A stretch of 64,000 nt of DNA from an uncultured Eubacteriales bacterium (lineage in GTDB: Bacteria > Bacillota > Clostridia > Oscillospirales > CAG-272), in assembly GCA_934462825.1 (NCBI GenBank), contig CAKSIP010000003.1, forward strand, positions 477 to 64,476. Reading direction: 5' to 3'. Position 1 is the stretch's first letter, and every line of letters begins with the position of its first letter. The translations under genes were made by a program, and so were the position numbers. The notes below the pieces were generated by a model. The model was not told the DNA's origin. It worked only from the letters and a program-made list of their open reading frames with translations, and did no database searches. This document shows positions 7,170-52,473 of the stretch, piece by piece.

Positions 7170-7348
7170 CTTACAAATATAAGATAGCGCTCCGTCAAGA
7201 AAATGACGACAGTTCGGCGGATCTTATTCCGGGGAACCAGCGGGCTTGTTGCCTGTCAAGCCTACTTCGGCGTCCGCACCTTTCGCGGAACGGCCGGGCG
7301 GCCTTTGAAAAGTTCCGTTACTGATTGCAAAACGCACCTCTATCAATT
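7170..7348 (-). promoter_or_regulatory. Lysine riboswitch (L-box) leader of the dapA-dapB-dapF-dapL-lysA operon
   Basis: The minus-strand transcript reads ...GATAGAGGTGCG...CAGTAAC...GAAAGGTGCGGACGCCGAAG...CTGGTTCCCC...GAACTGTCGTCA...GAGCGCTATC. This matches the conserved L-box blocks as remembered from B. subtilis lysC (AGAGGTGCG, AGTA, GAAAGG..GTCGCCGAAG, CTGG, CTGTCA). A stem plus T-run (gctga..tcagc tgcttttttg) follows at about 7090-7125 before the dapA RBS. Confidence 0.8.
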
Positions 7349-7354
7349 TTTTGT

Positions 7355-33666: not shown

Positions 33667-34371
33667 ATGGCAACTTTCATTGACGGAAAACTGACGCTGA
33701 CTGTGGCAACCTACAATATTGCGGGCGGTTCTTACTGCGACGTCGCCCTGAAGGAGCTGGCCGCCGATGTGATCGCTTCGGGCGCCGACATCGTTGGCTT
33801 GCAGGAGGTGGATCGCTTTGTGCCGCGCTCCGGCCATCGTGATATGCTGGCCATTCTCGCCGGAGAGGCCGGATTTCCCTATTCGTTTTTTGTCCGCGCC
33901 ATTGACTTGAAGGGCGGGGAATACGGTACCTCCATCCTCAGCAAGTACCCCATAGAAGCCTCCGAGGTGATTCCGCTGGATTCGCCCCATGTCGAGGGGC
34001 GGTCGGTCGGCCGAACCGTGATCAATGTCTGCGGGATCAAGGTCAACTATTTCAACACCCACCTCGCTTTTGAAAACGACGAGGCGATCCTGTATCACTT
34101 CGATCAGGTCGCTGAAATTTTGAAAAAATACGATTCTTATATCATCACGGCCGACTACAACACCAACAATTATGCTCTGTTCAACCGCTTTCACGGTCAT
34201 CGGCTGGTCAACAACGAGGAGCATCCGTGGACAACCTTTCCTTCCTCCGGCGTCGGTATTGACAACATTGTTATGACCGAGGATTGGAGCTTTGGCAACG
34301 TACAGATAGGCCCGCAGGGGCATTCCGACCATTGCCTGCTTTCCGCTACGCTGGAAAAGCAGGTGGGATAA
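33667..34371 (+). CDS. Endonuclease/exonuclease/phosphatase (EEP) family protein
   Basis: MATFIDGKLTLTVATYNIAGG, GLQEVD and a C-terminal SDHCLL motif are typical of the EEP fold. No signal peptide. Start set at the ATG after GAAAGGA (the tracked ORF starts inside the repeat array). Confidence 0.75.
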   Translation: MATFIDGKLTLTVATYNIAGGSYCDVALKELAADVIASGADIVGLQEVDRFVPRSGHRDMLAILAGEAGFPYSFFVRAIDLKGGEYGTSILSKYPIEASEVIPLDSPHVEGRSVGRTVINVCGIKVNYFNTHLAFENDEAILYHFDQVAEILKKYDSYIITADYNTNNYALFNRFHGHRLVNNEEHPWTTFPSSGVGIDNIVMTEDWSFGNVQIGPQGHSDHCLLSATLEKQVG

Positions 34372-34402
34372 AAAGATTAAGGACAAAGAATAAAGCGTTA
34401 AG

Positions 34403-34473
34403 GCTGAAAGGCAAAGGCTGAAGGACAAAGGCTAAAGGCTAAAGGCTAAAGGGCAAAGGACAAAGGACAAAAA
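34403..34473 (+). repeat. Array of about ten heptamers (C/T)(A/G)AAGG(C/A) ending 3 nt before the flavin-reductase ATG
   Basis: ...gctgaaaggcaaaggctgaaggacaaaggctaaaggctaaaggctaaagggcaaaggacaaaggacaaaaagcaATG. Every unit contains a Shine-Dalgarno-like AAAGG. Confidence 0.85.
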
Positions 34474-34476
34474 GCA

Positions 34477-35289
34477 ATGGGGAAAATACAATGGGCGGGC
34501 GGCGCGCTTCTTGCGCCCATTCCCGCCGTGCTTGTGACTTGCGGTTCTGCGGAAAAGAGCAATGTTTTTACCGTCGCGTGGACGGGCATTGTCAACACGC
34601 ACCCGCCTATGACGTATATATCGGTGCGCCCCTCGCGGTATTCCTACGATCTGATTCGGGAAAGCGGTGAGTTTATCATCCACCTGACAACCGCGGAGCA
34701 AATCCGCAAGGTCGATTTTTGCGGGATTTATACCGGGCGCAAGGTCAATAAATGGGAAAAATGCGGGCTGGCTACGGAGCCGGCCAAGGTCGTGAAGTGC
34801 CCGCTTTTGTCGGACGCCCCGCTGGCGTTGGAGTGCCGCGTTACGCAGGTGCTTCCCTTGGGAACGCATGATATGTTTTTAGCCGAGATCGTGGCGACCG
34901 ATGTTGAGGAATCGCTTTTGGACGAAAACGGCAAGCTCTGCCTGGAGCGGGCGCATCTGGTCGCCTTTGGGCATGGGACGTACTTCGCGCTTGGAGAACC
35001 GATCGGCACTTTTGGCTTTTCCACGGAAAAGCCGAAGAAAAAGGAAAGCAGAGGGGCAAATCAGCGGCCGGCGGCCGGGCAACCGACGGCCGAGCGGCTC
35101 AGTGCCCCCACGCCCTCATCGGAAAGTGAAAGGGGAAAGCGCAAGACGAGTGCACCTTCTATGGCGAAAAGCGAAAATGCGGTGCGGGCGAAAAAAGGGC
35201 CGGAGGCTTCCGCCAAGAGGACGGCCAAGCCGACGCGCCGGGCGAACAAGCCGAGGGCCAAACGCCCGAAGCCGAAACGATTCGATTAG
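34477..35289 (+). CDS. Flavin reductase-like (FMN-binding split-barrel) protein with a basic low-complexity C-terminal tail
   Basis: The first roughly 180 aa resemble the Flavin_Reduct domain (PIPAVLVTCG...NVFTVAWTGIVNTHPPMTYISVRP...). The last roughly 85 aa are rich in K, R, P, A and S (KKKESRGANQRPAAGQ...RANKPRAKRPKPKRFD). Confidence 0.65.
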   Translation: MGKIQWAGGALLAPIPAVLVTCGSAEKSNVFTVAWTGIVNTHPPMTYISVRPSRYSYDLIRESGEFIIHLTTAEQIRKVDFCGIYTGRKVNKWEKCGLATEPAKVVKCPLLSDAPLALECRVTQVLPLGTHDMFLAEIVATDVEESLLDENGKLCLERAHLVAFGHGTYFALGEPIGTFGFSTEKPKKKESRGANQRPAAGQPTAERLSAPTPSSESERGKRKTSAPSMAKSENAVRAKKGPEASAKRTAKPTRRANKPRAKRPKPKRFD

Positions 35290-35312: not shown

Positions 35313-35410
35313 AGCGAACGGACAAACGGACGAGTGAACAACCGGACAAACGGACGAGTGAACAACCGGACGGACGAACGAGCGGGCAAACGAGCGGGCA
35401 AACGGGCAAG
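35313..35410. repeat. Short tandem repeats (24-bp unit x2, then 12-bp-like units) 3' of the flavin-reductase gene
   Basis: ggacaaacggacgagtgaacaacc occurs twice in tandem, followed by ggacggacgaacgagcgggcaaacgagcgggcaaacgggcaagc. Confidence 0.8.
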
Positions 35411-35542: not shown

Positions 35543-35586
35543 AGCGACGCATGAAAGGCAATGAGCCACGATGCGTCGCTTTTTTA
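35543..35586 (+). terminator. Rho-independent terminator
   Basis: agcgacgcat / atgcgtcgct, a 10-bp stem followed by TTTTT. Confidence 0.75.
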
Positions 35587-35835
35587 ATGCCCCAAACAAG
35601 CAATTATAGGAACATTGCACAAAATGGCAAACGCCGAATTGTGCAGATTTCACGACGAAAAAGGCTCCGGGCTTTATGAAATTTTCCCATATATTCCTTC
35701 GCGTCTTTTTGCTTTATTATAAAAAATTTACAATTTTTCAGTAGAAGCTTTGGCGGAAAAATGATATTATATACTAAACTATTATGCCTATTTTCGTTCC
35801 CTTCAAAAAATAAAGAGAGAAGAAAGGTGACTTTT

Positions 35836-37926
35836 ATGAAAAATTGGACGAGATTTTTCAGCTTGCTTTTGGCGCTGGTTTGCGTGGCAGGCACTTTGAT
35901 CGCTTGTCAGCCCAAGCAGCCCGACGAAACGCCGAGCGCAACGCCAACCACAACCCCCTCCGAAACGCCCAAGCCGGAGGATCCGGAGCGCTTCCTTACG
36001 CTGGTGGATGGCGTGGCGACTTCCTACACCATCATCCGCCCTTCCGAGACGACCACGGCCGTGAAGAACGCGGGTAAAAAAATGCGGGAAGGCCTGCGTG
36101 CGTACGTGAAGGATGTGACGCTGACCGAGGACTTTCTGATGAAGGATCAACAGCCGGGAACCTATGAAATTTTGATCGGTCAAACCAACCGCGAGGAATC
36201 CATCGAGGCGCTCAAGGGCGCCAACTACGATGACGTGATTGTGGCCGTGACCGGTGACAAGCTGGTGATTAACTCTTATAACGACGAAAAGCTGCTGCCG
36301 GCCGTGGAAAAGGTGCTGGCCTCGCTGAAAAGCGAGAACGGCAAGGTGCTGCTGAGCAGCAAGGCGGCCTTTGAGGAAAGGGCGACCTATCCGTTCCCCG
36401 ACCTTGCGTTGAACGGCCATTTGCTGAAGGATTACCGTATCGTGGTGCCGGCGGCTCCGCATGCCCTGGTGAAAAACGCAGCGGAGCGGCTTCAGAAAGC
36501 CATTATTGCGGCTTGCGGAACTTGCCTTCCGATTGTGAACGATCATTCCGAAGCGACGGAAAAAGAAATTGTGATCGGGAAAAATGAGCGCCCCGCTTCT
36601 TCCATCATAGATTTGGACAATCTGTCCGACTATACTTGCGTGATCAAAAACAGCGGCGCCGCCCTTGTTGTGGGCGCGACCGATAACAGCTTTGCTTTGA
36701 GCCAGGCGCTGGACGCCCTGACAAAAATGGTGGCGGCCGGCAAAATCGAGGAAAAGACGATTACGCTGGACAACTGCATCACGCCGATGCTGACGGCGTT
36801 CTGCTTTACCGATGTGCATAACTGCTTCGCCATGCTGGAGCCGCCTTACGTTTTCCGCAAAACCGCCACGCTGGCCATTGACACACTGCTGGCAACGACC
36901 GGTCAGGTGGATATTGTTCTGGACGGCGGCGACCTTATGAGCGACTATCCGTCATGGACAACCTCCGGCCACTTGCCGTATGAATACTTTCTCGGCTTCA
37001 AGGAGCTTACGGTGAAAACGTATGCCGCGCTGGCCAAGGACGGCAAGGTGATGTACGTGGCTGGAAACCACGACTATGCCCAGGGCGAGGAAGCGACCGA
37101 CGGCCCCGGCAAGAACGGCTCCTATAACTCGGCGGATTTCTACTTCTCCGGCCCGATGAAAGACACGCTTGGCGAGCTGCCCGACAGCGAAAAGCATGAG
37201 ATCGTCGGCAGACATACCGGCGAAAAATATCTGTTGGCGTTCCATTACGTGGTGAACGGCGTGGACTTTATCGGTTTGGCGCCCGATCCCGACCTGATTT
37301 GGTCAAATCAACAGTGGGCGTTCAACCAGGATTCGATGCGATGGCTGAAAAACAAGCTGAACGAAATTGATCCCGACGGCATCAAGCCGATCTTTATGGT
37401 TTGCCATTACGCAACGGATCAGAGAGACGCAAGATATGAGGACGTGAATCAAGGCATCCATCATGACTCCTCCGTGGTGCTGTCCCTTTTGCCTGTGCTG
37501 AAGGGGCACCGCAATCTGTTCTATTTGTACGGCCATTGGACGTGTGCGCACAGCTTCCACACCGACTATACGGTTAAAAACGTATTGCACTACAATGATA
37601 AAGGCAACGTGATTGACATTCGGGGCAACGAAACGCAATCGACCGAGGTGGTGCCCGTGGAAAAGCGGTTTTTCAACGCGGTTTGGATGGGCGGCTTCCG
37701 TCTCGACTACAACAAAGAGGACTTCAATAATGACGCGCTGTTTGGCTATGGCGGCTACACGAAAAAGCAGTTTTTCCCCACCACCGCAACGCCGAAGCTT
37801 TCGCAGGGCATGTATATTGAAGTGTTCCCGGATCGCGTGGTGTTTACCATGAAGAACTTTGGTACAAAGAAAGGCTTTGAAACCGGAACCCAGCTGGAGC
37901 CTTACACCGTGTACTTGTATCGATAA
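35836..37926 (+). CDS. Metallophosphoesterase lipoprotein, array member P1 (696 aa)
   Basis: Lipobox signal MKNWTRFFSLLLALVCVAGTLIAC, then a Pro/Thr/Glu linker. Two modules of about 130 aa match the pattern seen in glycosidase N-terminal accessory domains (YEILIGQTNREES..., EIVIGKNERP...). Calcineurin-like motifs follow: FTDVHN, GGDLMSD, AGNHDY, VCHYA, YGHW. A conserved C-terminal domain ends the protein (FPTTATPKLSQGMYIEVFPDRVVFTMKNFG...EPYTVYLYR). Confidence 0.75.
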   Translation: MKNWTRFFSLLLALVCVAGTLIACQPKQPDETPSATPTTTPSETPKPEDPERFLTLVDGVATSYTIIRPSETTTAVKNAGKKMREGLRAYVKDVTLTEDFLMKDQQPGTYEILIGQTNREESIEALKGANYDDVIVAVTGDKLVINSYNDEKLLPAVEKVLASLKSENGKVLLSSKAAFEERATYPFPDLALNGHLLKDYRIVVPAAPHALVKNAAERLQKAIIAACGTCLPIVNDHSEATEKEIVIGKNERPASSIIDLDNLSDYTCVIKNSGAALVVGATDNSFALSQALDALTKMVAAGKIEEKTITLDNCITPMLTAFCFTDVHNCFAMLEPPYVFRKTATLAIDTLLATTGQVDIVLDGGDLMSDYPSWTTSGHLPYEYFLGFKELTVKTYAALAKDGKVMYVAGNHDYAQGEEATDGPGKNGSYNSADFYFSGPMKDTLGELPDSEKHEIVGRHTGEKYLLAFHYVVNGVDFIGLAPDPDLIWSNQQWAFNQDSMRWLKNKLNEIDPDGIKPIFMVCHYATDQRDARYEDVNQGIHHDSSVVLSLLPVLKGHRNLFYLYGHWTCAHSFHTDYTVKNVLHYNDKGNVIDIRGNETQSTEVVPVEKRFFNAVWMGGFRLDYNKEDFNNDALFGYGGYTKKQFFPTTATPKLSQGMYIEVFPDRVVFTMKNFGTKKGFETGTQLEPYTVYLYR

Positions 37927-37933
37927 AAAAGGC

Positions 37934-37954
37934 AGGGCCGTGAAAAACGGCCCT
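37934..37954 (+). other. Intergenic hairpin cassette between P1 and P2
   Basis: agggccg-tgaaaaa-cggccct followed by aataactcccaaaaaaggaggcaa and the ATG. The same cassette recurs between P2 and P3. No T-run follows, so it is more likely an mRNA processing or stability element than a terminator. Confidence 0.5.
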
Positions 37955-37982
37955 AATAACTCCCAAAAAAGGAGGCAAATCT

Positions 37983-40061
37983 ATGAGATTTTGGACGAGA
38001 TTTTTCAGCTTGCTTTTGGCGCTGGTTTGCGTGGCGGGCACTTTGACCGCTTGCCGGCCCAAACAGCCCGACGAAACGCCGACCGCAACCCCATCCGAAA
38101 CGCCAAAGCCGGAGGAGCCGGAGCGCTTCCTTACGCTGGTGGATGGCGAGGCTACTTCCTATACCATCATTCGTCCCTCCAAGACGACGACCGATGTGAA
38201 GAACGCGGGCAAAAAAATGCGGGAAGGTCTGCGTGCGTACGTGAAGGATGTGACGCTGGCCGAGGACTTTCTGATGCAGGATCAAAAGCCAGGCAACTAT
38301 GAGATTCTGATTGGCCAAACCAACCGGGAAGAATCCATCGAGGCGCTTAAGGGCGCTAAGTACGATGACGTGATTGTGGCCGTTGTCGGTGACAAACTGG
38401 TGATTAACTCTTACAACGACGAAAAGCTGCAACCGGCGGTCGAAAAGGTGCTGGCCGCGCTGAAAAACGAGAACGGAAAGGTGCTGCTTAGCAGCAAGGC
38501 TTCGTTTGAAGAAAGAGCGACCTATCCCTTTGACGATGTTACGCTGAACGGAAAATCGCTGAAGGATTACCGTATTGTAGTGTCGGCAACTCCGCATGCC
38601 CTGGTGAAAAGCGCGGTGGAGCGGCTTCAAAAAGCCATTATTGCGGCTTGCGGCACTTGCCTGCCGATTGTGAACGATCATTCCGAAGCGACGGAAAAAG
38701 AAATTGTGGTCGGGAAAAATGATCGTCCCGCCTCCTCTACCGTAACATTTGACGACCTGACAAAGTATACATATACCATCAAAAATACCGGTGAAACGCT
38801 GGTTGTGGGCGCAACCGATAACGGCTTTGCTCTGAGCCAAGCCTTGGACGCGCTGGCAAAAATGGCGGCAACCGGAAAAATCGAGGAAAAAACCATGACG
38901 CTGGACAACTGTATTACTCCGATCCTGACTTCCTTCTGCTTTACCGATACCCATAACTGCTTTTCCATGCTGGAGCCTCCCTACATTTTCCGCAAAAATG
39001 CGCAGGAAGCCATTGACTACCTGCTGAAAACGACCGGACAGGTGGATGTCGTTTTGGAGGGCGGCGACTTTATGAGCGACTACCCGTCATGGACAAGCTC
39101 CGGCCACTTGCCGTATGAATACTACCTCGGCTTCAAGAAAATGGCCACCGAACGATATGCCGCGCTGGCCAAGGGCGGCAAGGTGATGTACGTAGCCGGA
39201 AACCACGACTATGCGCAGGGCGAAGAATCCACCGACGGCCCCGGCAAAAACGGTTCTTACAACTCCTCGGAATTTTACTACACCGGCCCGATGAAGGAAA
39301 CCCTTGGCGAATTGGCCGATGACGAAAAGTTTGAAATTGTCGGAACACACACCGGGGAAAAGTATCTTTTGGCGTACCACTATGTCATCAACGGCGTTGA
39401 TTTCGTCGGTCTGTCGCCCGATCCCGATCTGATCTGGTCGGCACAGTCATACGGCTTCAATATCGCCTCGTTGAATTGGCTGAAAAACAAGCTGAATGAA
39501 ATTGATCCCGATGGCATCAAGCCGATTTTTATGCTCTGCCACTACGCCATTTCCCAGCGCGTAACATCCTCGAATCTGAACGCGCCTTATATTGACAGGA
39601 CCATTACGGCTACCATGCTTCCGATTCTCAAGGGGCATCACAACCTGTTTTACCTGTTCGGTCACTGGACAGTCAAGCACTCGTTCCACACCGATTTTAC
39701 CGTGAAAAACGTGATGCATTATGATGTTACGGGAAAGATTATCAATATTCAAGGCGATGAAACGGACTCCACCGCGGTGGCCTCGTTTGAAAAGCGGTAT
39801 TTTACGGCCGTTTGGATGGGCGGCTTCCGTTTGGATCGTGACGGTGATCATACGTATTTCAACAATGACATACCGTATGGATACGGCGGCTATAGCTATA
39901 AGCAACCCTTCCCCTCTGCGGCCACACCGAAATTGGCGCAGGGTATGTACATTGAAGTGTTCCCGGATCGCGTGGTGTTTACCATGAAGAACTTCGGCAC
40001 GTGGGAAGGCTATAAAACCGGAACCCAGCTGGAGCCTTACACCGTGTACTTGTATCGATAA
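37983..40061 (+). CDS. Metallophosphoesterase lipoprotein, array member P2 (692 aa)
   Basis: Same architecture as P1. Signal MRFWTRFFSLLLALVCVAGTLTAC. Motifs FTDTHN, GGDFMSD, AGNHDY, LCHYA, FGHWTVKHSFH. AGGAGG RBS. Confidence 0.75.
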   Translation: MRFWTRFFSLLLALVCVAGTLTACRPKQPDETPTATPSETPKPEEPERFLTLVDGEATSYTIIRPSKTTTDVKNAGKKMREGLRAYVKDVTLAEDFLMQDQKPGNYEILIGQTNREESIEALKGAKYDDVIVAVVGDKLVINSYNDEKLQPAVEKVLAALKNENGKVLLSSKASFEERATYPFDDVTLNGKSLKDYRIVVSATPHALVKSAVERLQKAIIAACGTCLPIVNDHSEATEKEIVVGKNDRPASSTVTFDDLTKYTYTIKNTGETLVVGATDNGFALSQALDALAKMAATGKIEEKTMTLDNCITPILTSFCFTDTHNCFSMLEPPYIFRKNAQEAIDYLLKTTGQVDVVLEGGDFMSDYPSWTSSGHLPYEYYLGFKKMATERYAALAKGGKVMYVAGNHDYAQGEESTDGPGKNGSYNSSEFYYTGPMKETLGELADDEKFEIVGTHTGEKYLLAYHYVINGVDFVGLSPDPDLIWSAQSYGFNIASLNWLKNKLNEIDPDGIKPIFMLCHYAISQRVTSSNLNAPYIDRTITATMLPILKGHHNLFYLFGHWTVKHSFHTDFTVKNVMHYDVTGKIINIQGDETDSTAVASFEKRYFTAVWMGGFRLDRDGDHTYFNNDIPYGYGGYSYKQPFPSAATPKLAQGMYIEVFPDRVVFTMKNFGTWEGYKTGTQLEPYTVYLYR

Positions 40062-40071
40062 AGAAACAGGC

Positions 40072-40092
40072 AGGGCCGTGAAAAACGGCCCT
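40072..40092 (+). other. Intergenic hairpin cassette between P2 and P3
   Basis: Identical agggccgtgaaaaacggccct plus aataactcccaaaaaaggaggcaa, as at 37934. Confidence 0.5.
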
Positions 40093-40120
40093 AATAACTC
40101 CCAAAAAAGGAGGCAATTTT

Positions 40121-42196
40121 ATGAGATTTTTGACGAGATTTTTCAGCTTGCTTTTGGCGCTGATTTGCGTGGCAGGTGCTTTGACCGCTTGCCGGCCCAA
40201 ACAACCCGACGAAACGCCGACCGCAACCCCATCCGAAACGCCAAAGCCGGAGGAGCCGGAGCGCTTCCTCACGCTGGCGGATGGCACATCCAGCCAATAT
40301 AAGGTGATTCGTCCTACAGAAACGACACAGGCGGTGAAAGACGCCGCGGTAAAGATGCGCGAGGGGTTGCGCACCTATGCGCCGGCTCTTTGGCTGGAGG
40401 AGGATTTCCTTATAAAAGGCCAAACGCCGGGCAACTATGAAATCTTGATCGGTCAAACCAACCGCGAGGAATCGGATCAGGCACTGAAAGGCGCGAAATA
40501 CGACGATGTGGTGGTAACGATGATCGGTGAAAAATTGGTTATCAATTCCTACAACGACGAAAAGCTGGAGGGCGCTGTCGAAAAGGTGCTGGCCGCGCTG
40601 AAAAACGAGAACGGCAAGGTGCTTTTGAGCAACAAATCGACCTTTGCCGAAAGAGCCACCTACCCGCTGTCCGACATCACGCTGAACGGCACTTCGCTGA
40701 AGGATTACCGTATCGTGACAAAGGCAAAGCCTCACGCCTTTGTGAAAAACGGAGTGGAACGGTTGCAGAAAGCCATTATTGCAGCCAGCGGCTTTTATCT
40801 GCCGATTATCACCGATAGCACCGAGGCCACGGGAAAAGAAATTGTCGTCGGAGAAAGCAAACGCCCTGCATCGACCGGGACGGATGTTAGCGAAATCGGC
40901 GCCTATACGTACATTATCAAAGACAGCGACGGCAATGTGGTCGTTTGTGCATCGGATAATGATTATACCTTAAGTCAGGCGTTGGACGCACTGACAAAAA
41001 TGGTAGGAAGCGGAAAGGTCGAGGAAACGAAAATGACGCTGGACAATTGCATCACACCGATGCTGACCTCCTTCTGCTTTACCGATACGCACAACTGCTT
41101 TTCCATGCTGGAGCCTCCCTACATTTTCCGCAAAAATGCGCAGGCCGCCATTGACTACCTGCTGAAAACGACCGGACAGGTGGATGTCGTTCTGGAGGGC
41201 GGCGACTTTATGAGCGATTACCCGACATGGCAAAGCTCCGGCCACTTGCCGTATGAATATTACCTCGGCTTCAAGAAAATGGCCACCGAGCGATATGCAA
41301 AGCTTGCGAAGGGTGGCAAGGTGATGTACGTAGCCGGAAACCACGACTACGCGCAGGGCGAAGAATCCACCGACGGCCCCGGCAAAAACGGTTCTTACAA
41401 CTCCTCGGAATTTTATTTTACCGGCCCGATGAAGGAAACCCTTGGCGAATTGGCCGATGACGAAAAATTTGAGATCGTCGGCACGCACACCGGGGAAAAG
41501 TATCTTTTGGCCTATCACTATGTCATCAACGGCGTTGATTTTGTCGGTCTGTCGCCCGATCCCGATCGGGTCTGGTCGGCACAGTCATACGGCTTCAATA
41601 CCGCCTCGCTGAATTGGCTGAAAAACAAGCTGAATGAAATTGATCCCGAAGGCATCAAGCCGATCTTTATGCTTTGCCATTACGCCATGTCTCAGCGTGG
41701 GACCGACGTAGAGCTGAACACGCCTTATAGTGACCACATCATTACGGATGCCATGATGCCGGTTCTCAAGGGGCATCACAACCTGTTTTACATGTTCGGA
41801 CATTGGGCCAGCTATGTGTCCTTCCACACCGATTTTACTGTAAAAAACGTGATGCATTACAATGTCATGGGAAATATTTTCAATATTAAAGGCGATGAAA
41901 CAGACTCTACCGCGGTGGCCTCGTATGACAAACGGTACTTTACGGCCGTTTGGATGGGCGGCTTCCGTTTGGATCACGACACTCATATGTATTTCAACAA
42001 TGACATTCCGTATGGATACGGCGGCTATACCCAACAGCAATCTTTCCCCTCCGCCGCTACGCCGAAATTGGCGCAGGGCATGTACATTGAAGTGTTCCCG
42101 GATCGCGTGGTGTTTACCATGAAGAACTTCGGCACGTGGGAAGGCTTTAAAACCGGAACCCAGCTGGAGCCTTATACGGTCTATCTTTACAAATAA
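40121..42196 (+). CDS. Metallophosphoesterase lipoprotein, array member P3 (691 aa)
   Basis: Signal MRFLTRFFSLLLALICVAGALTAC. Same domain order as P1 and P2. The catalytic half is almost identical to P2 over long stretches. Confidence 0.75.
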   Translation: MRFLTRFFSLLLALICVAGALTACRPKQPDETPTATPSETPKPEEPERFLTLADGTSSQYKVIRPTETTQAVKDAAVKMREGLRTYAPALWLEEDFLIKGQTPGNYEILIGQTNREESDQALKGAKYDDVVVTMIGEKLVINSYNDEKLEGAVEKVLAALKNENGKVLLSNKSTFAERATYPLSDITLNGTSLKDYRIVTKAKPHAFVKNGVERLQKAIIAASGFYLPIITDSTEATGKEIVVGESKRPASTGTDVSEIGAYTYIIKDSDGNVVVCASDNDYTLSQALDALTKMVGSGKVEETKMTLDNCITPMLTSFCFTDTHNCFSMLEPPYIFRKNAQAAIDYLLKTTGQVDVVLEGGDFMSDYPTWQSSGHLPYEYYLGFKKMATERYAKLAKGGKVMYVAGNHDYAQGEESTDGPGKNGSYNSSEFYFTGPMKETLGELADDEKFEIVGTHTGEKYLLAYHYVINGVDFVGLSPDPDRVWSAQSYGFNTASLNWLKNKLNEIDPEGIKPIFMLCHYAMSQRGTDVELNTPYSDHIITDAMMPVLKGHHNLFYMFGHWASYVSFHTDFTVKNVMHYNVMGNIFNIKGDETDSTAVASYDKRYFTAVWMGGFRLDHDTHMYFNNDIPYGYGGYTQQQSFPSAATPKLAQGMYIEVFPDRVVFTMKNFGTWEGFKTGTQLEPYTVYLYK

Positions 42197-42220
42197 TTTG
42201 CGGACAAATGAGGTGCATTT

Positions 42221-43387
42221 ATGAACTGTAACAAACAAGAACCAAAATTGACAGCCTTTTGCTTTACCGATACGCACAACTGCTTTTCCATGCTGGAGCC
42301 TCCGTATGTTCTTCGGAAAACGGTTTCGATGGCTGTGGATGCCCTGCTGAAAACCAAAGGGCAGGTGGATGTGGTGCTGGAGGGCGGGGATTGCATGAGC
42401 GATTACCCGACATGGACCAGCTCCGGCCACTTGCCGTATGCGTACTACAAAGACTTCAAAGCCCTTGTGGTGGAAAATTACGCAAAGCTGGCCAAGGGCG
42501 GCAAGGTGATGTATGTGACCGGCAACCATGACTACGCGCAGGGCGAAGAAGCCACCGACGGCCCCGGCAAAAACGGCTCTTATAATTCCTATGACTTTTA
42601 CTATACCGGCCCGATGAAGGAAACGCTTGGCGAGTTGGCCGATAACGAAAAGTTTGAGATCATCGGCACGCATACCGGCGAAAAGTATCTTTTGGCGTAC
42701 CACTATGTTATCAACGGCATTGATTTTGTCGGCCTGTCGCCCGATCCCGATTTGATCTGGTCGGAACAGGCGTACGGCTTCAATGTTTCCTCGCTGGATT
42801 GGCTGAAAAACAAGCTGGAGGAGATGGATCCCGACGGCACCAAACCGATCTTTATGCTCTGCCACTACGCCATTTCCCAGCGCGCGACAATCAAGGATTT
42901 GAATGACCCTTATGAGGACGACACGATTACAACAACGCTCGCTCCGATTCTCAAGGGACATCGCAATCTGTTTTATTTGTTTGGCCATTGGGCGAACTAT
43001 GTGTCCTTTTACACCGACAACACGGTGAAAAGCGTGATGCACTATACGCCCGAAGGTAAAATCATTCCCATTCGCGGGGATGAAACGGAATCGACGGCTT
43101 TGGCGCCCCTTCAAGAGCGCTCGTTCAACGCAGTGTGGATGGGAGGCTTCCGCTTGGATCATGACGGTCAAACACAATATTTTGAGGACGACGCGGTAGA
43201 AGGCTGGGGCGGCTATACCGACCATAAGCGGGTTTTCCCCTCCACCGCTACACCAAAGCTGGCACAGGGCATGTACATCGAAGTGTTCCCGGATCGCGTG
43301 GTGTTTACCATGAAGAACTTCGGCACGTGGGAAGGAATAAAAACGGGAACGGAATTGAAGCCCTATACCGTGTACTTGAACCAATAA
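42221..43387 (+). CDS. Leaderless metallophosphoesterase, array member P4 (388 aa; catalytic and C-terminal domains only)
   Basis: Starts MNCNKQEPKLTAFCFTDTHNCF, exactly at the catalytic-domain boundary. GAGGTG lies 6 nt upstream. No signal peptide and no N-terminal modules. Motifs GGDCMSD, TGNHDY, LCHYA, FGHWANYVSFY. Confidence 0.7.
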   Translation: MNCNKQEPKLTAFCFTDTHNCFSMLEPPYVLRKTVSMAVDALLKTKGQVDVVLEGGDCMSDYPTWTSSGHLPYAYYKDFKALVVENYAKLAKGGKVMYVTGNHDYAQGEEATDGPGKNGSYNSYDFYYTGPMKETLGELADNEKFEIIGTHTGEKYLLAYHYVINGIDFVGLSPDPDLIWSEQAYGFNVSSLDWLKNKLEEMDPDGTKPIFMLCHYAISQRATIKDLNDPYEDDTITTTLAPILKGHRNLFYLFGHWANYVSFYTDNTVKSVMHYTPEGKIIPIRGDETESTALAPLQERSFNAVWMGGFRLDHDGQTQYFEDDAVEGWGGYTDHKRVFPSTATPKLAQGMYIEVFPDRVVFTMKNFGTWEGIKTGTELKPYTVYLNQ

Positions 43388-43413
43388 AACAAAAGATAAC
43401 AAGAGGATAGAGT

Positions 43414-44610
43414 ATGAATCCCAAAATCGAAAGTCAAGAAAATCCGCAGGCAAAACCGATTTTGACATCCTTTTGCTTTTCGGATGTGCACAACTGCTTT
43501 TCCATGTTGGAGCCGCCGTATGTGCTGAGAAAATCGGCCACGCTGGCCATTGATACACTGCTTGCGACCAAAGGTCAGGTCGATGTGGTGATGATGGGCG
43601 GCGATTATATGAGCGATTACCCCGGCTGGCTCAACTGCTCCAACACCCTGCCGTACGCATACTATCTCGGCTATAAGGCGGCTACCGTGAAGGAATACGC
43701 CCGGTTGGCCAAGGACGGCAAGGTGCTCTACTGTGCCGGCAACCACGATTTTGCCCAAGGCGAGGCGGCTACCGACGGCCCCGGCAAGAACGGCTCCTAC
43801 AATTCCTTTGAATTTTATTATACCGGCCCGATGAATCAAACGCCCGGCCCGCTTCCCGACAGCGAGCGTTTTGAAATCGTGGGCGAGCATACCGGGGAGA
43901 AATATCTGCTTTGTTACCATTACGAAATCCGGGGCGTGCACTTTTTGGCGCTGTCCCCCGATCCCGATCAAATCTGGAACACGCAGTGCGTCGGCTTCCA
44001 TCCGGATTCCTTGACCTGGCTGAAAAACAAGCTGGAGGAGATCGACCCGGACGGCAAGGAAGTGATTTTCCTGAGCTGCCACTATGCTATGGATCAGAGA
44101 GACGCTCGCTCGGAAAATGTGAATGAAGGCTTCCACCACGATGATTTCATTGCCGGTACCATCGGCTCGTTGTTGCTCGGACATCGCAATCTGTTCTATA
44201 TGTACGGCCATTGGACGTGTGCGCACAGCTTCCATAAGGGAACAACGGTAAAAAATGTGATCCACTATTACAAGGATCAATCCATTATCCCGATTGAGGG
44301 CGACGAGCTTTCCTCGCGTGAGGTGAAGGATGCGGAAAAGCGCGCCTTCAGCTCCGTGTGGATGGGCGGCTTCCGTTTGGATCATAACGGAAATCAGGAG
44401 TATTTTGAGGATGATCCCGTCGAAGGGTGGGGCGGCTATACCGATAAAAAGCGGAAATTCCCCTCCACGGCAACGCCCAAAATGTCGCAGGGCATGTATA
44501 TAGATGTGTTTCCCGACCGCGTTGTGTTTACCATGATGAACTTCGGAAACTATCCCGGTTATGAAACCGAAACGCCCATTGCGCCTTACACGGTGTATCG
44601 GAACGATTAA
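43414..44610 (+). CDS. Leaderless metallophosphoesterase, array member P5 (398 aa; catalytic and C-terminal domains only)
   Basis: Starts MNPKIESQENPQAKPILTSFCFSDVHNCF. AAGAGGA RBS. No signal peptide. Motifs GGDYMSD, AGNHDF, SCHYA, YGHWTCAHSFH. Confidence 0.7.
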   Translation: MNPKIESQENPQAKPILTSFCFSDVHNCFSMLEPPYVLRKSATLAIDTLLATKGQVDVVMMGGDYMSDYPGWLNCSNTLPYAYYLGYKAATVKEYARLAKDGKVLYCAGNHDFAQGEAATDGPGKNGSYNSFEFYYTGPMNQTPGPLPDSERFEIVGEHTGEKYLLCYHYEIRGVHFLALSPDPDQIWNTQCVGFHPDSLTWLKNKLEEIDPDGKEVIFLSCHYAMDQRDARSENVNEGFHHDDFIAGTIGSLLLGHRNLFYMYGHWTCAHSFHKGTTVKNVIHYYKDQSIIPIEGDELSSREVKDAEKRAFSSVWMGGFRLDHNGNQEYFEDDPVEGWGGYTDKKRKFPSTATPKMSQGMYIDVFPDRVVFTMMNFGNYPGYETETPIAPYTVYRND

Positions 44611-44683
44611 ATTCAAGCTCTTTCCGCAAAAGCGTCATTGCTTTTGCAGAAAGGCAGAAAAATAGAAAGGTAGAAAAACTTAA

Positions 44684-46750
44684 ATGAAAAAAATACGCGT
44701 ACTTTCCCTATTCTTAACACTGTTGATGCTGTTGTCGGCGCTCACCGCGTGCCGGCCGTCCCCCAACCCGGATCCGACGCCGACGCCGACACCCACACCG
44801 ACGCCGGCCCCGATCTATACGACCACGATCCTTGAAAACGGCGTGTGCAATTATACCGTTGTCCGTCCGACCGACTGTGACAGCGAAACCAACGCGGCCG
44901 CCATGCAGTTGAGAGCGGCGTTGGCGACCATGACCGAAAAAGGATATATTCCGATGGATGAAGACTTTATCGCGCCTACTCACCAGCCGAAAGAGTTGGA
45001 AATCCTGGTGGGCTCTACCAACCGCGACGAAAGCACGGAAGTGCTTAGCGGCCTGAAATATCAGGACTATAAAATCACGGTAGTGGGCAAAAAGGTCGTT
45101 ATTGCGGCACATTCGCCGCAGGCCATCACAGCGGCCGTGACTTACTTTATTGAAAATTACATCGGAGACAAAAAAGACAACAAGAACGCTACGTTGTCCT
45201 TGTCCAGCGAAAACGCCTATACGTATCAAGGCACGTATGAGCTGAACGATGTAAAGATCGGCGATACGCCGCTGGAGGAATATCAGTTTGTCCTTCCCGC
45301 ATCGCGGACGTATGCCCTCAATCGCTCGTATCAATATTTCCTTTCCGAGGTTCGCCAAAAAACCGGTATTTATCTGAAAACGGTGGAGGATACGCAGGAA
45401 GCCTCCGAGCATGAAATTCTGTTTGGAAACACCAACCGCGCGGAATCGAAAAAATACTATGATGCCGGCATGGCGGATAATACCTATGCCTTTGAATTGG
45501 CCGGCCAAAAGCTCGTCATAGCGGCCTCCTTGGATTACTTTGCCTTTAAGAAAGCCACCGAGGATTTCATCGCCATGCTGACCGCCAAGAATCTCAGCAA
45601 CAAGCAATTGACAATTGACGTCAGCAAGCCGATTTTGACATCGTTTGGTATGTCGGATATTCATAACAATTTCGCCATGCTGGAACCGCCGTATGTGTTC
45701 CGCAAAAATGCGGCGGCGGCCGTGGATCAGATTTTGTCAACGCGCGGCCAGGTCGATGTGTTGATGATCGGCGGTGACTTTATGAGCGACTATCCGTCAT
45801 GGAATTCGTCCGGCCATCTGCCGTATGCCTACTTTGTGGGATTCCGCGACCATGCCTCCGAGATCCTTTCCAAGCTGGCTAAGGACGGCAAGGTGATGTA
45901 TATCGCCGGAAACCATGACTATGCGCAGGGCGAGAAATCCACCGACGGCCCCGGTAAGAACGGATCTTATAACTCGGCCGACTTCTATTACAACGGCCCC
46001 ATGAAGGATACGCTTGGGGAACTGCCCGAAAGCGAAAAGTTTGAGATTGTGGGTACGCATACCGGCGAGAAATATTTGCTGGCGTACCATTATGAGGTCA
46101 ACGGCGTGCACTTTATCGGCTTTTCGCCGGATCCGGATAAAATCTGGTCAGAGCAGGGATATGGCTTCAATACCGAAAGCCTGAAGTGGCTGGATAATAA
46201 GCTGAAAGAAATTGATCCCAACGGAGACGCCGTTATTTTCATGAACTGCCATTACGATGTGGCTTATCGGCAGAACGGAGAGCTTTACAGCGTCGGTTCG
46301 GCCAGCAACGACCTGGTTCCCATTCTCAAGAGCCATAAAAACCTTTTCTACTTGTTTGGACACATTCATCATGCCGACGGCAGAGATTATGCCAAGAAGA
46401 AAACGGCCGAAGTCGTGGTTCATTACTCGGCGAGTGGTACAGCCGTCAATACCAGCCCGGAAGCGACCTCCTATGCCAACAGCGTATCGCGCGGCTTTAC
46501 CGCTGTGTACATGGGCGCATACCGCATAGACTATCAGGCGGATCGCTTTGGCTTGGATAAGGTGTACGGCTATGGAGGATATTCGTATAAGCAGTCCTTC
46601 CCGTCCACCGCAACGCCCAAGCTGTCGCAGGGACTTTACATTGCCGTGTATGAGGATCGGGTGGAGTTTCAGTGCGTCAACACCGGTACGTTGAACGGAT
46701 TTAAAACGTCCGATATTATCGAACCCTATACGGTTTATCTGTACAAATAA
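44684..46750 (+). CDS. Metallophosphoesterase lipoprotein, array member P6 (688 aa; most divergent)
   Basis: Signal MKKIRVLSLFLTLLMLLSALTAC, then a (PT)n linker. Same two N-terminal modules (ELEILVGSTNRDES, EILFGNTNRAES). Motifs MSDIHN, GGDFMSD, AGNHDY, NCHYD and a canonical GHIHH. Confidence 0.75.
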   Translation: MKKIRVLSLFLTLLMLLSALTACRPSPNPDPTPTPTPTPTPAPIYTTTILENGVCNYTVVRPTDCDSETNAAAMQLRAALATMTEKGYIPMDEDFIAPTHQPKELEILVGSTNRDESTEVLSGLKYQDYKITVVGKKVVIAAHSPQAITAAVTYFIENYIGDKKDNKNATLSLSSENAYTYQGTYELNDVKIGDTPLEEYQFVLPASRTYALNRSYQYFLSEVRQKTGIYLKTVEDTQEASEHEILFGNTNRAESKKYYDAGMADNTYAFELAGQKLVIAASLDYFAFKKATEDFIAMLTAKNLSNKQLTIDVSKPILTSFGMSDIHNNFAMLEPPYVFRKNAAAAVDQILSTRGQVDVLMIGGDFMSDYPSWNSSGHLPYAYFVGFRDHASEILSKLAKDGKVMYIAGNHDYAQGEKSTDGPGKNGSYNSADFYYNGPMKDTLGELPESEKFEIVGTHTGEKYLLAYHYEVNGVHFIGFSPDPDKIWSEQGYGFNTESLKWLDNKLKEIDPNGDAVIFMNCHYDVAYRQNGELYSVGSASNDLVPILKSHKNLFYLFGHIHHADGRDYAKKKTAEVVVHYSASGTAVNTSPEATSYANSVSRGFTAVYMGAYRIDYQADRFGLDKVYGYGGYSYKQSFPSTATPKLSQGLYIAVYEDRVEFQCVNTGTLNGFKTSDIIEPYTVYLYK

Positions 46751-46768: not shown

Positions 46769-46807
46769 GGGGAGTTAAAAAACGCAAAATGCGTTTTTTA
46801 ACTCCCC
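46769..46807. repeat. Palindromic A-run/T-run element, copy e (3' of the array)
   Basis: ggggagttaaaaaacgca-aaa-tgcgttttttaactcccc, followed by ctttttgtttttt. Confidence 0.8.
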
Positions 46808-46874
46808 CTTTTTGTTTTTTGCGCAAGCGGCCATGGGATCGGCGCGTAAGGGAAAACAAATTTCGCCGGAAATG

Positions 46875-46943: not shown

Positions 46944-48482
46944 ATGGGAGGACAGCCGGCCGATTATGAAAATGTGCGACTGACGGGGCAGCTTTCACGG
47001 GATTTGTCTATGGTGCGCCGGATTTTTCTGCGGGACAGTATTTTGCGGATTCGCCCCTTGTACTGCGTGGCGATTGGGCAAAAATGCGCGGCAGTTTATT
47101 TTGACGGGATGGTAAATTCCGATTTGCTGGTGGAAGGCATTTTTCGGCCCATGACGCAAAGCGCCCCGATTCATTGCCCCCACGGAAATCGTGCGGGCGA
47201 TACCGATGCGGCCGTTGCATTGCTGGCCGAGCGCGTGCTGGCGGCGGACGATGTGAAGGTTGTGCAAACGCTTGGGGAGATGCTGCGGGCGGTTATGTAC
47301 GGCGACACTTTGCTTTTGGTGGACGGAAGCACGAGCGCTCTGACGGTGAACAGCAAAGGCTGGAAAACGCGCGGCATTGACGAGCCGGAAGATGAACGTG
47401 TGCTGGAAGGCCCGCGGGAAGGCTTTAACGAGTCCGCTATGATCTCTACGGCACTGTTGCGGCGCAAGCTGCAAACGCCCGATTTTTCGGTGGAGCTTTT
47501 GCGAGTGGGACGTCGCACCGATACAAAGGTTTACCTGTGCTATCTTGGCAGCCTTGCGCCGCGCCGCCTGGTGAAAGCCTTGCGCCAACGCATTGCGTCC
47601 ATTGATATTGACGGCATTTTGGATGTCAATTATCTCAGTGAGCTGATGAGCGACCGTCCGAGGCAGCTGTTTCGGACATCGGGTACGACCGAGCGTCCTG
47701 ACGTGGTGGCCGCTCGCCTGCTGGAAGGACGCATTGCCATTTTGTGTGACGGCAGTCCCATGGCTCTGACGGTGCCCTATCTCTTTTCGGAAAATTTCCA
47801 ATCGGACGAGGACTATTATCAGCCGGCTCCGGTGGCTTGTGTCGGTCGGTTTTTGCGCTACCTGAGCTTTTTCCTGTCGATCAGCGTCCCCGCTGTGTAT
47901 GTGGCGTTGACCGTGTTTCACCGCCGCCTTTTGCCTACCGCCTTCCTTTTGTCGGTGTCGGCGGCCCGTCAGGGCGTTCCGATTGCATCGGTGACGGAAT
48001 GCTTGCTTCTGATCCTGATTTTTGAGATCCTGAAGGAAGCGGGCCTGCGGACTTCGCAAAGCCTTGGCAATGCTTTAAGCATTGTCGGCGGACTTGTCGT
48101 GGGGCAAGCGGCGGTGGAAGCCAAATTTGTCAGCGCCCCCATGCTGATTATCGTGGCTCTCAGCGGCATTGCCGGCTTGATGGTGCCGCGCTTGCGCGCC
48201 CCGGTGTTTTATTTGCGGCTTTTGCTGGTGATAGCGGCCGCTACCCTTGGACTTTTCGGATATATGGCGGTGATGGCCGCCGTGATCGTTCGGATTTTGT
48301 CCCTTCGCTCGTATGGCTTTGACGAAACGCCGGCGCTGTCTTCGCCGTCTTACCAAAGCTTCAAAGACACAATTCTTCGCGCCCCGATTGGGAAAATGCG
48401 GTTGCGCCCGCCTTTGACCGGAAACCGGATTCGCCTGAAAATGCAGAAAGGGCGCCGGGCGGAGAGGGACAGGGGTGTTTGA
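46944..48482 (+). CDS. Spore germination protein, GerA (A-subunit) family
   Basis: 512 aa with typical GerAA-family segments (LLVDGSTSALTVNSKGWKTRGIDEPEDERVLEGPREGFNES...TALLRRKL) and a C-terminal multi-TM region. Confidence 0.85.
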   Translation: MGGQPADYENVRLTGQLSRDLSMVRRIFLRDSILRIRPLYCVAIGQKCAAVYFDGMVNSDLLVEGIFRPMTQSAPIHCPHGNRAGDTDAAVALLAERVLAADDVKVVQTLGEMLRAVMYGDTLLLVDGSTSALTVNSKGWKTRGIDEPEDERVLEGPREGFNESAMISTALLRRKLQTPDFSVELLRVGRRTDTKVYLCYLGSLAPRRLVKALRQRIASIDIDGILDVNYLSELMSDRPRQLFRTSGTTERPDVVAARLLEGRIAILCDGSPMALTVPYLFSENFQSDEDYYQPAPVACVGRFLRYLSFFLSISVPAVYVALTVFHRRLLPTAFLLSVSAARQGVPIASVTECLLLILIFEILKEAGLRTSQSLGNALSIVGGLVVGQAAVEAKFVSAPMLIIVALSGIAGLMVPRLRAPVFYLRLLLVIAAATLGLFGYMAVMAAVIVRILSLRSYGFDETPALSSPSYQSFKDTILRAPIGKMRLRPPLTGNRIRLKMQKGRRAERDRGV

Positions 48483-48519
48483 AATCGAAATTTTGCATAA
48501 ATCAAAGGAGAGAGAAAAC

Positions 48520-49902: not shown

Positions 49903-49986
49903 TCCGGGCATGGGAAAGGCAAAGCAGCAGAAACGGGAAAGGGAAAGAGAAAGAGAAAGAAAAAGAGAAAAGAAAGGAACGTCAAG

Positions 49987-51240: not shown

Positions 51241-51375
51241 AACCATGCTGTAAAGTGTCACCTCCGGCGCTTTCGCTTCATACACTGACGTTGCGTCCTG
51301 TTCCGCTTCCGCAGGGAGCGGGCGAAGGAAAAGAAGGAGAAAGAAAAGACATAAAGAGAAAGAAAGGACGATTGT

Positions 51376-52416: not shown

Positions 52417-52473
52417 CCCGCCTGTGACCGAAAGAAAAGTGCATTTTTCCCTGAAAGAAAGGAGGCCATGCCA

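Follow-up and report, generated by a model that had tools for sequence, protein, structure and literature searches.

Six tandem metallophosphoesterase genes, four with paired glycosidase-type N-terminal modules, in an uncultured Eubacteriales bacterium

Introduction

The calcineurin-like superfamily of metallophosphoesterases (PF00149) is characterised by a β-sandwich fold and by the motif series D-x-H, GD, GNHD, H and GH, both of which recur in a head-to-tail array of six genes, P1 to P6, from an uncultured Eubacteriales bacterium (contig CAKSIP010000003.1). We analysed this array within a stretch of 64,000 nucleotides, referred to here as the window. A sequence-only reading by a model had singled it out as a probable cell-surface battery of phosphodiesterases diversified by duplication. 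The nearest solved folds are those of mammalian purple acid phosphatase (1ute, 1war) and Enterobacter GpdQ (2zo9, 3d03), detected by Foldseek with E-values of 2e-9 to 1e-6 and template-modelling (TM) scores of 0.56-0.60, and the chemistry of the six proteins is presumably that common to the superfamily. Four of them carry in addition two N-terminal modules (N-modules) with the same α/β fold as the accessory domains of GH20, GH67, GH84 and GH89 glycosidases (PF02838, PF03648, NAGLU_N PF12971). No other calcineurin-like protein is known to us to have tandem GH20b-like modules.

Other systems invite comparison through the reactions they catalyse. In Bacillus subtilis, the exported phosphodiesterases GlpQ (GDPD) and PhoD depolymerise phosphate-linked glycopolymers. 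Gut phosphoesterases that strip phosphate from glycans are represented by the mannosyl-6-phosphatases BT3783 and BT2630 (EEP family; PDB 4c1r, 3mpr) of the yeast-mannan loci of Bacteroides thetaiotaomicron (PMC4978465). The proteins described below form a remote branch of the calcineurin-like superfamily and are probably active enzymes, four of them predicted at the surface and two in the cytoplasm; phosphate-linked glycoconjugates are their tentative substrates.

Six paralogues in tandem

P1 to P6 are consecutive genes on the plus strand at 35836-46750, with spacers of 24-73 nt. The listing of open reading frames (ORFs) agrees exactly with the coordinates first read, and identities of 46-78% to P1 support the claim that all six share one core. 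The long ORFs opposite them are shadow ORFs. The array comprises the following features:

35836-37926, + strand: P1, long form of 696 aa with lipobox Cys24 and Pro/Thr linker
35995-36360, 36406-36768 and 36772-37923, + strand: N-module 1, N-module 2 and metallophosphoesterase domain of P1
37983-40061, + strand: P2, long form of 692 aa with lipobox Cys24 and linker
38130-38495, 38538-38906 and 38907-40058, + strand: N-module 1, N-module 2 and metallophosphoesterase domain of P2
40121-42196, + strand: P3, long form of 691 aa with lipobox Cys24 and linker
40268-40633, 40676-41041 and 41045-42193, + strand: N-module 1, N-module 2 and metallophosphoesterase domain of P3
42221-43387, + strand: P4, short form of 388 aa, catalytic domain only, predicted cytoplasmic
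43414-44610, + strand: P5, short form of 398 aa, catalytic domain only, predicted cytoplasmic
44684-46750, + strand: P6, long form of 688 aa, a divergent, older paralogue
44684-44752 and 44753-44812, + strand: signal with lipobox, and Pro/Thr linker of P6
44813-45211, 45251-45619 and 45620-46747, + strand: N-module 1, N-module 2 and metallophosphoesterase domain of P6

Across the 64-kb window, profiles of the N-module and of the catalytic domain match only these six ORFs. The block contains no regulator, transporter or kinase gene, as had been stated from the outset.

A remote branch of the calcineurin-like superfamily

All six proteins match PF00149 (Metallophos) with 28.3-38.9 bits, above the gathering cutoff of 21.5, and 38 of 47 long homologues do so at E<=0.01. 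The motifs F.(T/S)D.HN, GGD.MSD, GNHD(Y/F), CHY and GH(W/I) are invariant or nearly so in P1 to P6. Conserved throughout are also an insert after GNHD, AQGE..TDGPGKNGSYNS, and a C-terminal motif, FP(S/T).ATPK..QG.YI.V..DRV.F, so that the motif series and the insert first read from the letters are present in every copy. An AlphaFold2 model of P4 (388 aa) has a predicted local distance difference score (pLDDT) of 93.4 and a predicted TM score (pTM) of 0.93 and matches the β-sandwich folds of purple acid phosphatases, GpdQ, Mre11 and SbcD with a Foldseek probability of 1.0. The best match is to the mammalian purple acid phosphatases (E 2e-9, TM 0.56-0.59 by target length); GpdQ reaches a TM of 0.60 by target length with 12% identity in the structural alignment, and a Dbr1-type chain, 5'-nucleotidase and SbcD/Mre11 follow. 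By threshold score, ligand motifs and fold, P1 to P6 are thus members of the calcineurin-like superfamily.

The distance to described members is large. All fold matches of P4 show 11-14% identity, a large root-mean-square deviation and TM scores of 0.5-0.6, and searches of PDB sequences with P6, a six-protein profile and a 42-sequence profile gave nothing significant, which makes the catalytic domain a remote branch of the superfamily. At ~385 aa it is also about 100 residues longer than its nearest fold relatives. An NCBIfam scan assigned the six proteins to no family, and at E<=1 neither Pfam nor NCBIfam reported PhoD (PF09423), 5_nucleotid_C or ASMase_C. Among the PADLOC defence models there was only a weak generic match of P6 to the candidate PDC-S10 (E 1e-6, over the H...GH region), and none for P2, P4 and P5. 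The view that this is not a characterised family therefore stands, since NCBIfam, PDB sequence and full-text literature searches were all empty; no placement in a well-characterised family with known tandem amplification was found.

The shared C-terminal motif had been taken to mark a separate conserved domain. The motif is indeed common to all six, but a separate domain was rejected: the P4 model is one compact unit, and alignments to 300-aa phosphatases span ~400 columns. Judged from the model, the region probably belongs to the catalytic fold itself or extends it.

Conservation of the metal ligands was counted over 88 catalytic domains of the family, in P4 numbering. D17, H19, D57, N102 and H215 are present in all 88, H256 in 87 and the GNH histidine H103 in 86. 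The seventh canonical ligand, the second His of GHxH, is more variable, with His in 39 domains, Glu in 34, Ala in 5 and Thr in 5; the Thr and Ala variants are exactly P1-P5 and their near-identical homologues, while P6 (GHIH) has the only complete GHxH motif of the array. A loss of metal ligands from most copies, which the earlier reading had named as a sign of non-enzymatic binding proteins, is not seen beyond this one position. PPP-type protein phosphatases are active without the seventh ligand, and P1-P5 are accordingly read as active too. With six of seven ligands in 87-88 of the 88 domains and a ratio of nonsynonymous to synonymous substitution (dN/dS) of 0.17-0.25, P1 to P6 are probably active metallophosphoesterases, for which the superfamily suggests binuclear hydrolysis of phosphate esters.

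Accessory modules and predicted location

P1, P2, P3 and P6, and only these, have a lipobox L-[IT]-A-C at Cys23/24 (LIAC in P1, LTAC in the other three), recognised by the pattern [LVI][ASTVI][GAS]C closing a hydrophobic signal sequence. They are predicted lipoproteins and substrates of signal peptidase II. The same four have a Pro/Thr/Glu linker, disordered in the P6 model (pLDDT ~40, residues 20-40), and two N-modules, so the assignment of lipobox, linker and modules to these four copies was correct. P4 and P5 lack a signal peptide, and since their stop-to-stop frames open 3-9 nt before the ATG, none can be hidden there. The cell-surface battery is accordingly upheld for the four predicted lipoproteins but not for P4 and P5, which cannot accommodate a signal; no more than four proteins of the array can be at the surface. 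The division recurs in the databases: a signal peptide is lacking in all short homologues, while the long ones mostly carry a lipobox or, in a few cases, a signal peptide together with a dockerin.

The two N-modules of each long form are ~125 aa in length, and hhalign shows them to be homologues (probability 99%, E 4e-18). Their motif E-I-L-(V/I)-G-x-T-N-R-x-E-S is invariant and is kept when the catalytic partner changes. In a model of full-length P6 (pLDDT 85.7, pTM 0.73), the N-terminal part matches structures of GH20 (3gh4, 8pxt), GH67 (1gqi), GH84 (6pwi, 2cbj) and GH138 (6hze) with fold-search E-values of 5e-7 to 1e-5. At the level of sequence, 8 of 47 homologues match PF02838 (Glyco_hydro_20b; best 1.8e-5) and 3 of 47 match PF03648 (Glyco_hydro_67N; best 1.3e-5), both at E<=0.01; these matches, in 11 of the 47 together, range from below the Pfam threshold up to it. 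The sole accessory-domain Pfam match among the window proteins is a weak one to NAGLU_N in P6 (E 0.08), and a profile of N-module proteins weakly matches the N-domain of the GH84 enzyme BT_4395 (E 0.07). The N-modules are hence of the GH20b/GH67N type by fold and weakly so by sequence, in line with the likeness proposed at the start.

Ordered arrays in related organisms

A word-indexed search retrieved 72 close relatives, all from metagenomes or metagenome-assembled genomes (MAGs) and named, where at all, "metallophosphoesterase". An exhaustive profile search gave 5977 matches, with about six 50%-identity clusters that have the full architecture and about 25 with the catalytic domain; among the 150 best matches listed, most match through the signal and double N-module alone. 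The 185,579 species-representative genomes of GTDB contain five loci, all single copies within the available flanks, in Oscillospiraceae and Eubacteriales MAGs and in one MAG labelled Candidatus Colimorpha enterica, and no cultured organism with a family member was found among these representatives. The family is small, and its members are found only in gut and rumen MAGs. The label of MAG E3_60, which carries the Colimorpha loci (L008, L011), deserves a remark: NCBI taxonomy and the naming paper place Candidatus Colimorpha in the Bacteroidales, one source gives its proteins as 'Firmicutes bacterium', its lipoproteins are of Gram-positive style, and the family otherwise occurs in Clostridia MAGs.

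Human gut metagenomes, those of Hadza samples among them, contain the array of the window with almost no change. Mixed arrays of long and short forms are also found beyond it: contig L012 holds six members in the order long-long-short-long-short-long, and contig L014 holds eight, collinear with those of L012. Orthologues in these two arrays are 71-84% identical, compared to 44-60% for paralogues within an array, which implies that the array is old and that each position has been kept. In another strain, two long copies (L005, 1-4064) are each split by a frameshift and are either pseudogenes or errors in the assembly of repeated DNA. Several metagenome contigs break inside the array.

History of the paralogues

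Over the full length, P2, P3, P4, P5 and P6 are 78, 70, 68, 65 and 46% identical to P1. In the catalytic region dN/dS is 0.17-0.25 for all 15 pairs, and all six copies are under purifying selection. Synonymous distances are mosaic, amounting to 0.44 in the N-terminal part and 0.90 in the catalytic part for P1 and P2, and to 1.08 and 0.31, respectively, for P2 and P3, which indicates recombination between copies.

P1-P5 form a lineage-specific clade nearest to the fourth-position type of the L012 and L014 arrays, while P6 is an older paralogue nearest to their last-position type. In a neighbour-joining tree without bootstrap the short forms are polyphyletic; as P1-P5 are one clade, P4 and P5 arose within the window array's own expansion. 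The repeated emergence and retention of signal-less copies beside lipoproteins suggests that both locations are needed. Diversification by duplication, as originally proposed, is thus retained, but not as a single recent burst, since P6 is older and the arrays elsewhere are ancient and ordered. We infer that the paralogues represent old, individually conserved specificities and not redundant copies.

Transcription unit

Spacing and terminators suggest that P1 to P6 form one operon. The flanking and internal elements are:

35544-35585, + strand: terminator-like hairpin GCGACGCAT...ATGCGTCGC followed by TTTTTT, read directly, ending the upstream flavin-reductase gene
35590-35835, + strand: AT-rich leader and putative promoter region, proposed from the sequence
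37933-37955, + strand: intergenic hairpin GGGCCGTGAAAAACGGCCC in the P1-P2 spacer, placed on the minus strand by the scan
40071-40093, + strand: identical second copy of this hairpin in the P2-P3 spacer
46769-46817 (end also placed at 46807), + strand: strong intrinsic terminator, an 18-bp stem and a T-run, between P6 and the gerA operon

The first hairpin was missed by the consensus scan because its loop exceeds 8 nt; with it in place, the array appears to be a transcription unit of its own. The identical hairpins between P1 and P2 and between P2 and P3 imply that the duplicated unit included the spacer. A promoter consensus scan of the array leader reported none, and an Rfam search of the whole window found no regulatory RNA before the array, its sole match being a lysine riboswitch far upstream. 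For P1, an alternative start at 35761 is possible and is used by metagenome gene callers; it lies in an AT-rich, promoter-like stretch and was rejected. The start at 35836 is the better one because the ribosome-binding site GAAAGGTGA stands 6 nt ahead of its ATG and because it yields MKNWTRFFSLLLALVCVAGTLIAC, so that the signal peptide runs parallel to its counterparts in P2 and P3. A mobile element or island was likewise rejected, the base composition being flat over the block.

Partner domains and substrate clues

Elsewhere the catalytic domain is fused to LRR, CBM9 and dockerin, and more distant catalytic relatives to ricin-B lectin, Big_2 or dockerin. The N-modules have partners of their own. 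We sampled 81 proteins from the top matches of the full-length profile, 79 of which match via the N-module pair, and found as partner domains EEP (53), alkaline phosphatase (12), GDPD (4), MBL (1), PI-PLC-X (1) and GDSL (1); longer N-module proteins carry DUF4838 or GH-type domains. A search with a profile of the N-module alone returned 24 mostly short proteins, including some with carboxyl-esterase and SGNH partners. The EEP partners are closest to 3g6s and BT3783 (profile E 1e-48 and 2e-42; 5e-28 for the single protein P0125), compared to 1e-10 to 1e-8 for S. aureus beta-hemolysin and sphingomyelinase C and 1e-4 or weaker for DNase I/ExoIII types. In the Bacteroides mannan system, BT3783 removes phosphate from phosphorylated high-mannose N-glycan (PMC4978465).

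On two contigs (L017, 1002-6586; L018, 3100-8700) a dockerin-bearing family member is followed by a dockerin-EEP gene. In this conserved pair the first ~640 residues are common at 41.6% identity and the catalytic domain is swapped. Neighbours in other organisms include GxDLY/GDSL esterases, a BNR_2 propeller, GH2, heparinase II/III-like proteins and AraC regulators. PDB searches with the BNR_2 and GDSL neighbours on L012 led to uncharacterised proteins and very weak sialidase matches, and gave no clue to the substrate.

Proposed role and alternatives

Taken together, these results would fit an operon of six active enzymes, distributed between surface and cytoplasm, that act on phosphate-linked glycoconjugates. 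We put this complete explanation at roughly 40%; its enzymatic and localisation part, taken by itself, is very probable. P1, P2, P3 and P6 would be exported and lipid-anchored at Cys23/24, with the Pro/Thr linker holding the enzyme off the membrane, while P4 and P5 would keep the same catalytic domain in the cytoplasm. Two metals would be held by D-x-H, GD, GNHD, H and GH, an activated water would attack the phosphate ester, and the GNHD histidine would stabilise the transition state. The AQGE..TDGPGKNGSYNS insert and other invariant polar, aromatic and Arg residues may shape the substrate pocket. Candidate substrates would be phosphoglycans, teichoic-acid-like or capsule-like polymers and phosphorylated N-glycans or mannans; a phosphorylated glycan is a plausible conjecture from the module repertoire, the BT3783-like partners and the neighbourhoods. 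The surface paralogues could cut different linkages outside the cell and the cytoplasmic ones finish imported fragments, possibly with BT3783-like EEP phosphatases as partners. Division of labour between surface and cytoplasm and a distinct specificity for each paralogue would both be part of this reading.

Several observations weigh against such a role. The neighbours within the window are housekeeping and spore-germination genes, with no carbohydrate-active enzymes among them, and there is no linked transporter, which makes the two-compartment scheme a conjecture. The N-module is also found in front of carboxyl-esterases, SGNH hydrolases and glycosidase-like domains and may be a generic surface-display or wall-spanning scaffold without bearing on the substrate; to our knowledge, the GH20b-type domain has no established function in glycosidases either. 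Purple acid phosphatase and GpdQ, which give the best fold matches, are remote and are not glycan enzymes, no characterised member of the family was found in Pfam, NCBIfam, PDB or the full-text literature, and the Thr/Ala in GHx[H/E] of P1-P5 might weaken one metal site.

A wider proposal makes the tandem GH20b-like pair the targeting or positioning module of an unrecognised system of gut and rumen Clostridia for dismantling phosphate-linked glycoconjugates, be they phosphoglycans, teichoic-type polymers or glyco-phospholipids such as plant glycosyl-inositol-phosphoceramides (GIPCs). At least six unrelated folds would share this scaffold (the present metallophosphoesterase, BT3783-like EEP, alkaline phosphatase, GDPD, PI-PLC and MBL), and ordered arrays of surface and cytoplasmic paralogues would perform successive steps. 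If true, the system would be a Gram-positive, phosphate-ester counterpart of the polysaccharide-utilisation locus; we consider the proposal doubtful.

Rather unlikely is a role in scavenging nucleic acids or nucleotides, in which the surface proteins would be nucleases, 2',3'-cyclic-nucleotide phosphodiesterases or nucleotidases that harvest extracellular DNA/RNA and the substrates of the cytoplasmic copies would be nucleotides, imported or endogenous. Firmicutes commonly have lipoprotein nucleotidases, Mre11/SbcD nucleases and 5'-nucleotidases occur at ranks 12-50 among the fold matches of P4, and the EEP, MBL and alkaline-phosphatase/NPP partner folds include nucleases. The EEP partners, however, are nearest to BT3783 (E 1e-42), with DNase I/ExoIII types at 1e-4 or weaker, and the GDPD and PI-PLC-X partners do not act on nucleic acids. 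Pfam and NCBIfam show neither a 5'-nucleotidase C-terminal domain nor a capping domain, relatives carry the carbohydrate-binding modules CBM9 and ricin-B, and the neighbours elsewhere are esterases and glycan-related genes. The evidence leans to glycan-associated over nucleic-acid substrates.

General phosphate scavenging is unlikely. Here the proteins would be broad phosphomonoesterases of the purple-acid-phosphatase type, acting for example on phytate or sugar phosphates of a plant-rich diet, with the paralogues covering different positions or pH ranges. Such an array of 6-8 distinct, ancient and ordered paralogues exceeds the needs of inorganic phosphate release, and no Pho-type regulator or phosphate transporter is nearby. 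Purple acid phosphatases, among which plant phytases belong, are the top fold matches (E 2e-9), but they are not matched at the level of sequence (E 0.29); motif I is D-x-H and not D-x-G, and the Tyr of GDxxY is out of register (GD-x-x-S-D-Y). What remains in favour are the many invariant Arg/Lys residues, which suit polyanionic substrates, the alkaline-phosphatase partners of the N-module, which are monoesterases, and the gut and rumen hosts.

We consider it quite improbable that the enzymes are head-group phosphodiesterases for sphingomyelin, plant GIPCs, glycosylphosphatidylinositol or phospholipids of diet or host. Enzymes that cut lipid head groups occur in each of the catalytic folds that follow the N-module (EEP, metallophosphoesterase, alkaline-phosphatase/NPP, GDPD, PI-PLC-X, MBL), examples being the neutral, acid and alkaline sphingomyelinases, sphingomyelinase D, PI-PLC and NAPE-PLD. 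The EEP matches do include S. aureus beta-hemolysin and sphingomyelinase C (E 1e-10 to 1e-8), but BT3783 is matched far better; acid-sphingomyelinase-like structures fall outside the top 50 fold matches, Pfam reports no saposin or C-terminal ASMase domain, and a lipid-metabolism gene context is absent. A gut metallophosphoesterase acting on phospholipids has been reported (PMC12808494), although the Akkermansia protein of that study, AMUC-1901, is a different, small metallophosphoesterase.

Remodelling of the cell's own envelope, that is, turnover of teichoic-acid-like or secondary wall polymers, perhaps tied to sporulation or germination, would be in keeping with a lipoprotein linker long enough to reach into the wall, the GerA/GerC/GerB, Amidase_3 and PG_binding/SpoIID-like proteins encoded downstream, and the precedent of B. 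subtilis GlpQ and PhoD, which act on the organism's own wall teichoic acid. Between the array and gerA, however, stands a strong terminator, other organisms do not share the germination context, dockerin and CBM9 forms point to external substrates, and cytoplasmic short forms do not fit wall turnover, so we rate it as very unlikely. Finally, pseudo-enzymes that merely bind phosphorylated ligands, as Thr/Ala in place of the second His/Glu of GHx[H/E] in P1-P5 could suggest, are extremely unlikely given the invariance of the six other metal ligands and the catalytic GNHD histidine, the activity of PPP-type phosphatases without the seventh ligand and the purifying selection on all copies.

Neighbouring genes in the window

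Two genes lie 1.5-6.6 kb upstream of the array, with an uncertain link to it:

29207-32737, + strand: CBM9-like lipoprotein, 1176 aa; synteny kept only within the species
33667-34371, + strand: small EEP-family phosphoesterase, 234 aa, without signal

The lipoprotein comprises a Pro/Thr linker of ~90 aa, a ~200-aa region without assignment and four CBM9-like modules, and is probably a surface glycan-binding protein. The small EEP protein has no solved homologue at E<=1e-3. Between the two, the non-coding, GC-rich segment 32800-33550 contains 3-5 imperfect dispersed repeats of 37-98 nt, each composed of an A-run, a GC-rich segment and TTTTTTTGTTGC, with an exact 21-nt core that occurs twice there and nowhere else in the window.

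The flavin-reductase-like protein encoded at 34477-35289 (PF01613) ends in a strongly basic, low-complexity tail of ~110 aa. Its gene is flanked by tandem repeats, with units of 7, 14, 21 and 42 nt (AAGGACA/AAGGCTA) just upstream (34379-34477) and of 24 and 12 nt just downstream (35319-35404). The lysine riboswitch (RF00168, 88.8 bits) lies on the minus strand at 7177-7350. Downstream of the array, 46944-53820 holds a gerA/gerC/gerB-type germination operon and, after it, genes of the Amidase_3 and PG_binding_1/SpoIID-like types, a region that identifies the source organism as a spore-forming Firmicute; the GerAC-like ORF, when read from 48475, has a Lys/Asp-rich, low-complexity N-terminal extension.

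Significance and comparison with known systems

The metallophosphoesterase superfamily and the accessory fold are already known. Not described in the profile libraries and literature that we searched are the domain combination, the insert-bearing and remote branch of the catalytic domain, the conservation of mixed arrays and the double N-module as an apparent common scaffold for phosphoesterases of several folds; full-text searches in particular gave no description of a metallophosphoesterase joined to a double N-module. Thousands of other surface phosphoesterases have this scaffold in common with the family. Teichoic acids, capsules, the phosphoglycans of yeasts and protozoa and plant sphingolipids all contain phosphate-ester links, which stop ordinary glycosidases and for whose removal we know of very few gut enzymes. 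Should the substrate prove to be a phosphoglycan, the family would close a gap in the picture of how phosphate-bearing polymers are processed by Gram-positive gut bacteria, and the GH20b-type domain, long an enigma, would gain a role; should the proteins be plain phosphate or nucleotide scavengers, the array would be a commonplace expansion of paralogues. The array is of an unsurprising kind, and it is worth enzymology.

Compared to the exported phosphodiesterases GlpQ and PhoD, P1 to P6 have no GDPD or PhoD-like Pfam match, although GDPD domains also occur behind the N-module. The Pho-regulon context of those systems is absent at the array, as is tandem amplification from theirs. BT3783 has the EEP fold, which differs from that of P1 to P6, lacks N-modules and belongs to a polysaccharide-utilisation locus of Bacteroidetes; its link to the window genes is through shared scaffold and neighbourhood only.

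Within their own superfamily, P1 to P6 are set apart by the insert AQGE..TDGPGKNGSYNS after GNHD and by a longer C-terminal part. They differ from purple acid phosphatases in motif I, which is (T/S)-D-x-H-N as in GpdQ and Mre11 instead of D-x-G, and in motif II, GGD-x-x-S-D-Y, with its Tyr at +5 and not at +3, and the PDB profile match is correspondingly poor (E 0.29). GpdQ and the class III phosphodiesterases are not matched in sequence, and their domain of ~270 aa contrasts with ~385 aa here. Compared to the accessory domains of glycosidases, finally, the N-module is duplicated in tandem, stands behind a lipobox and linker, and precedes a phosphoesterase in place of a TIM-barrel glycosidase.

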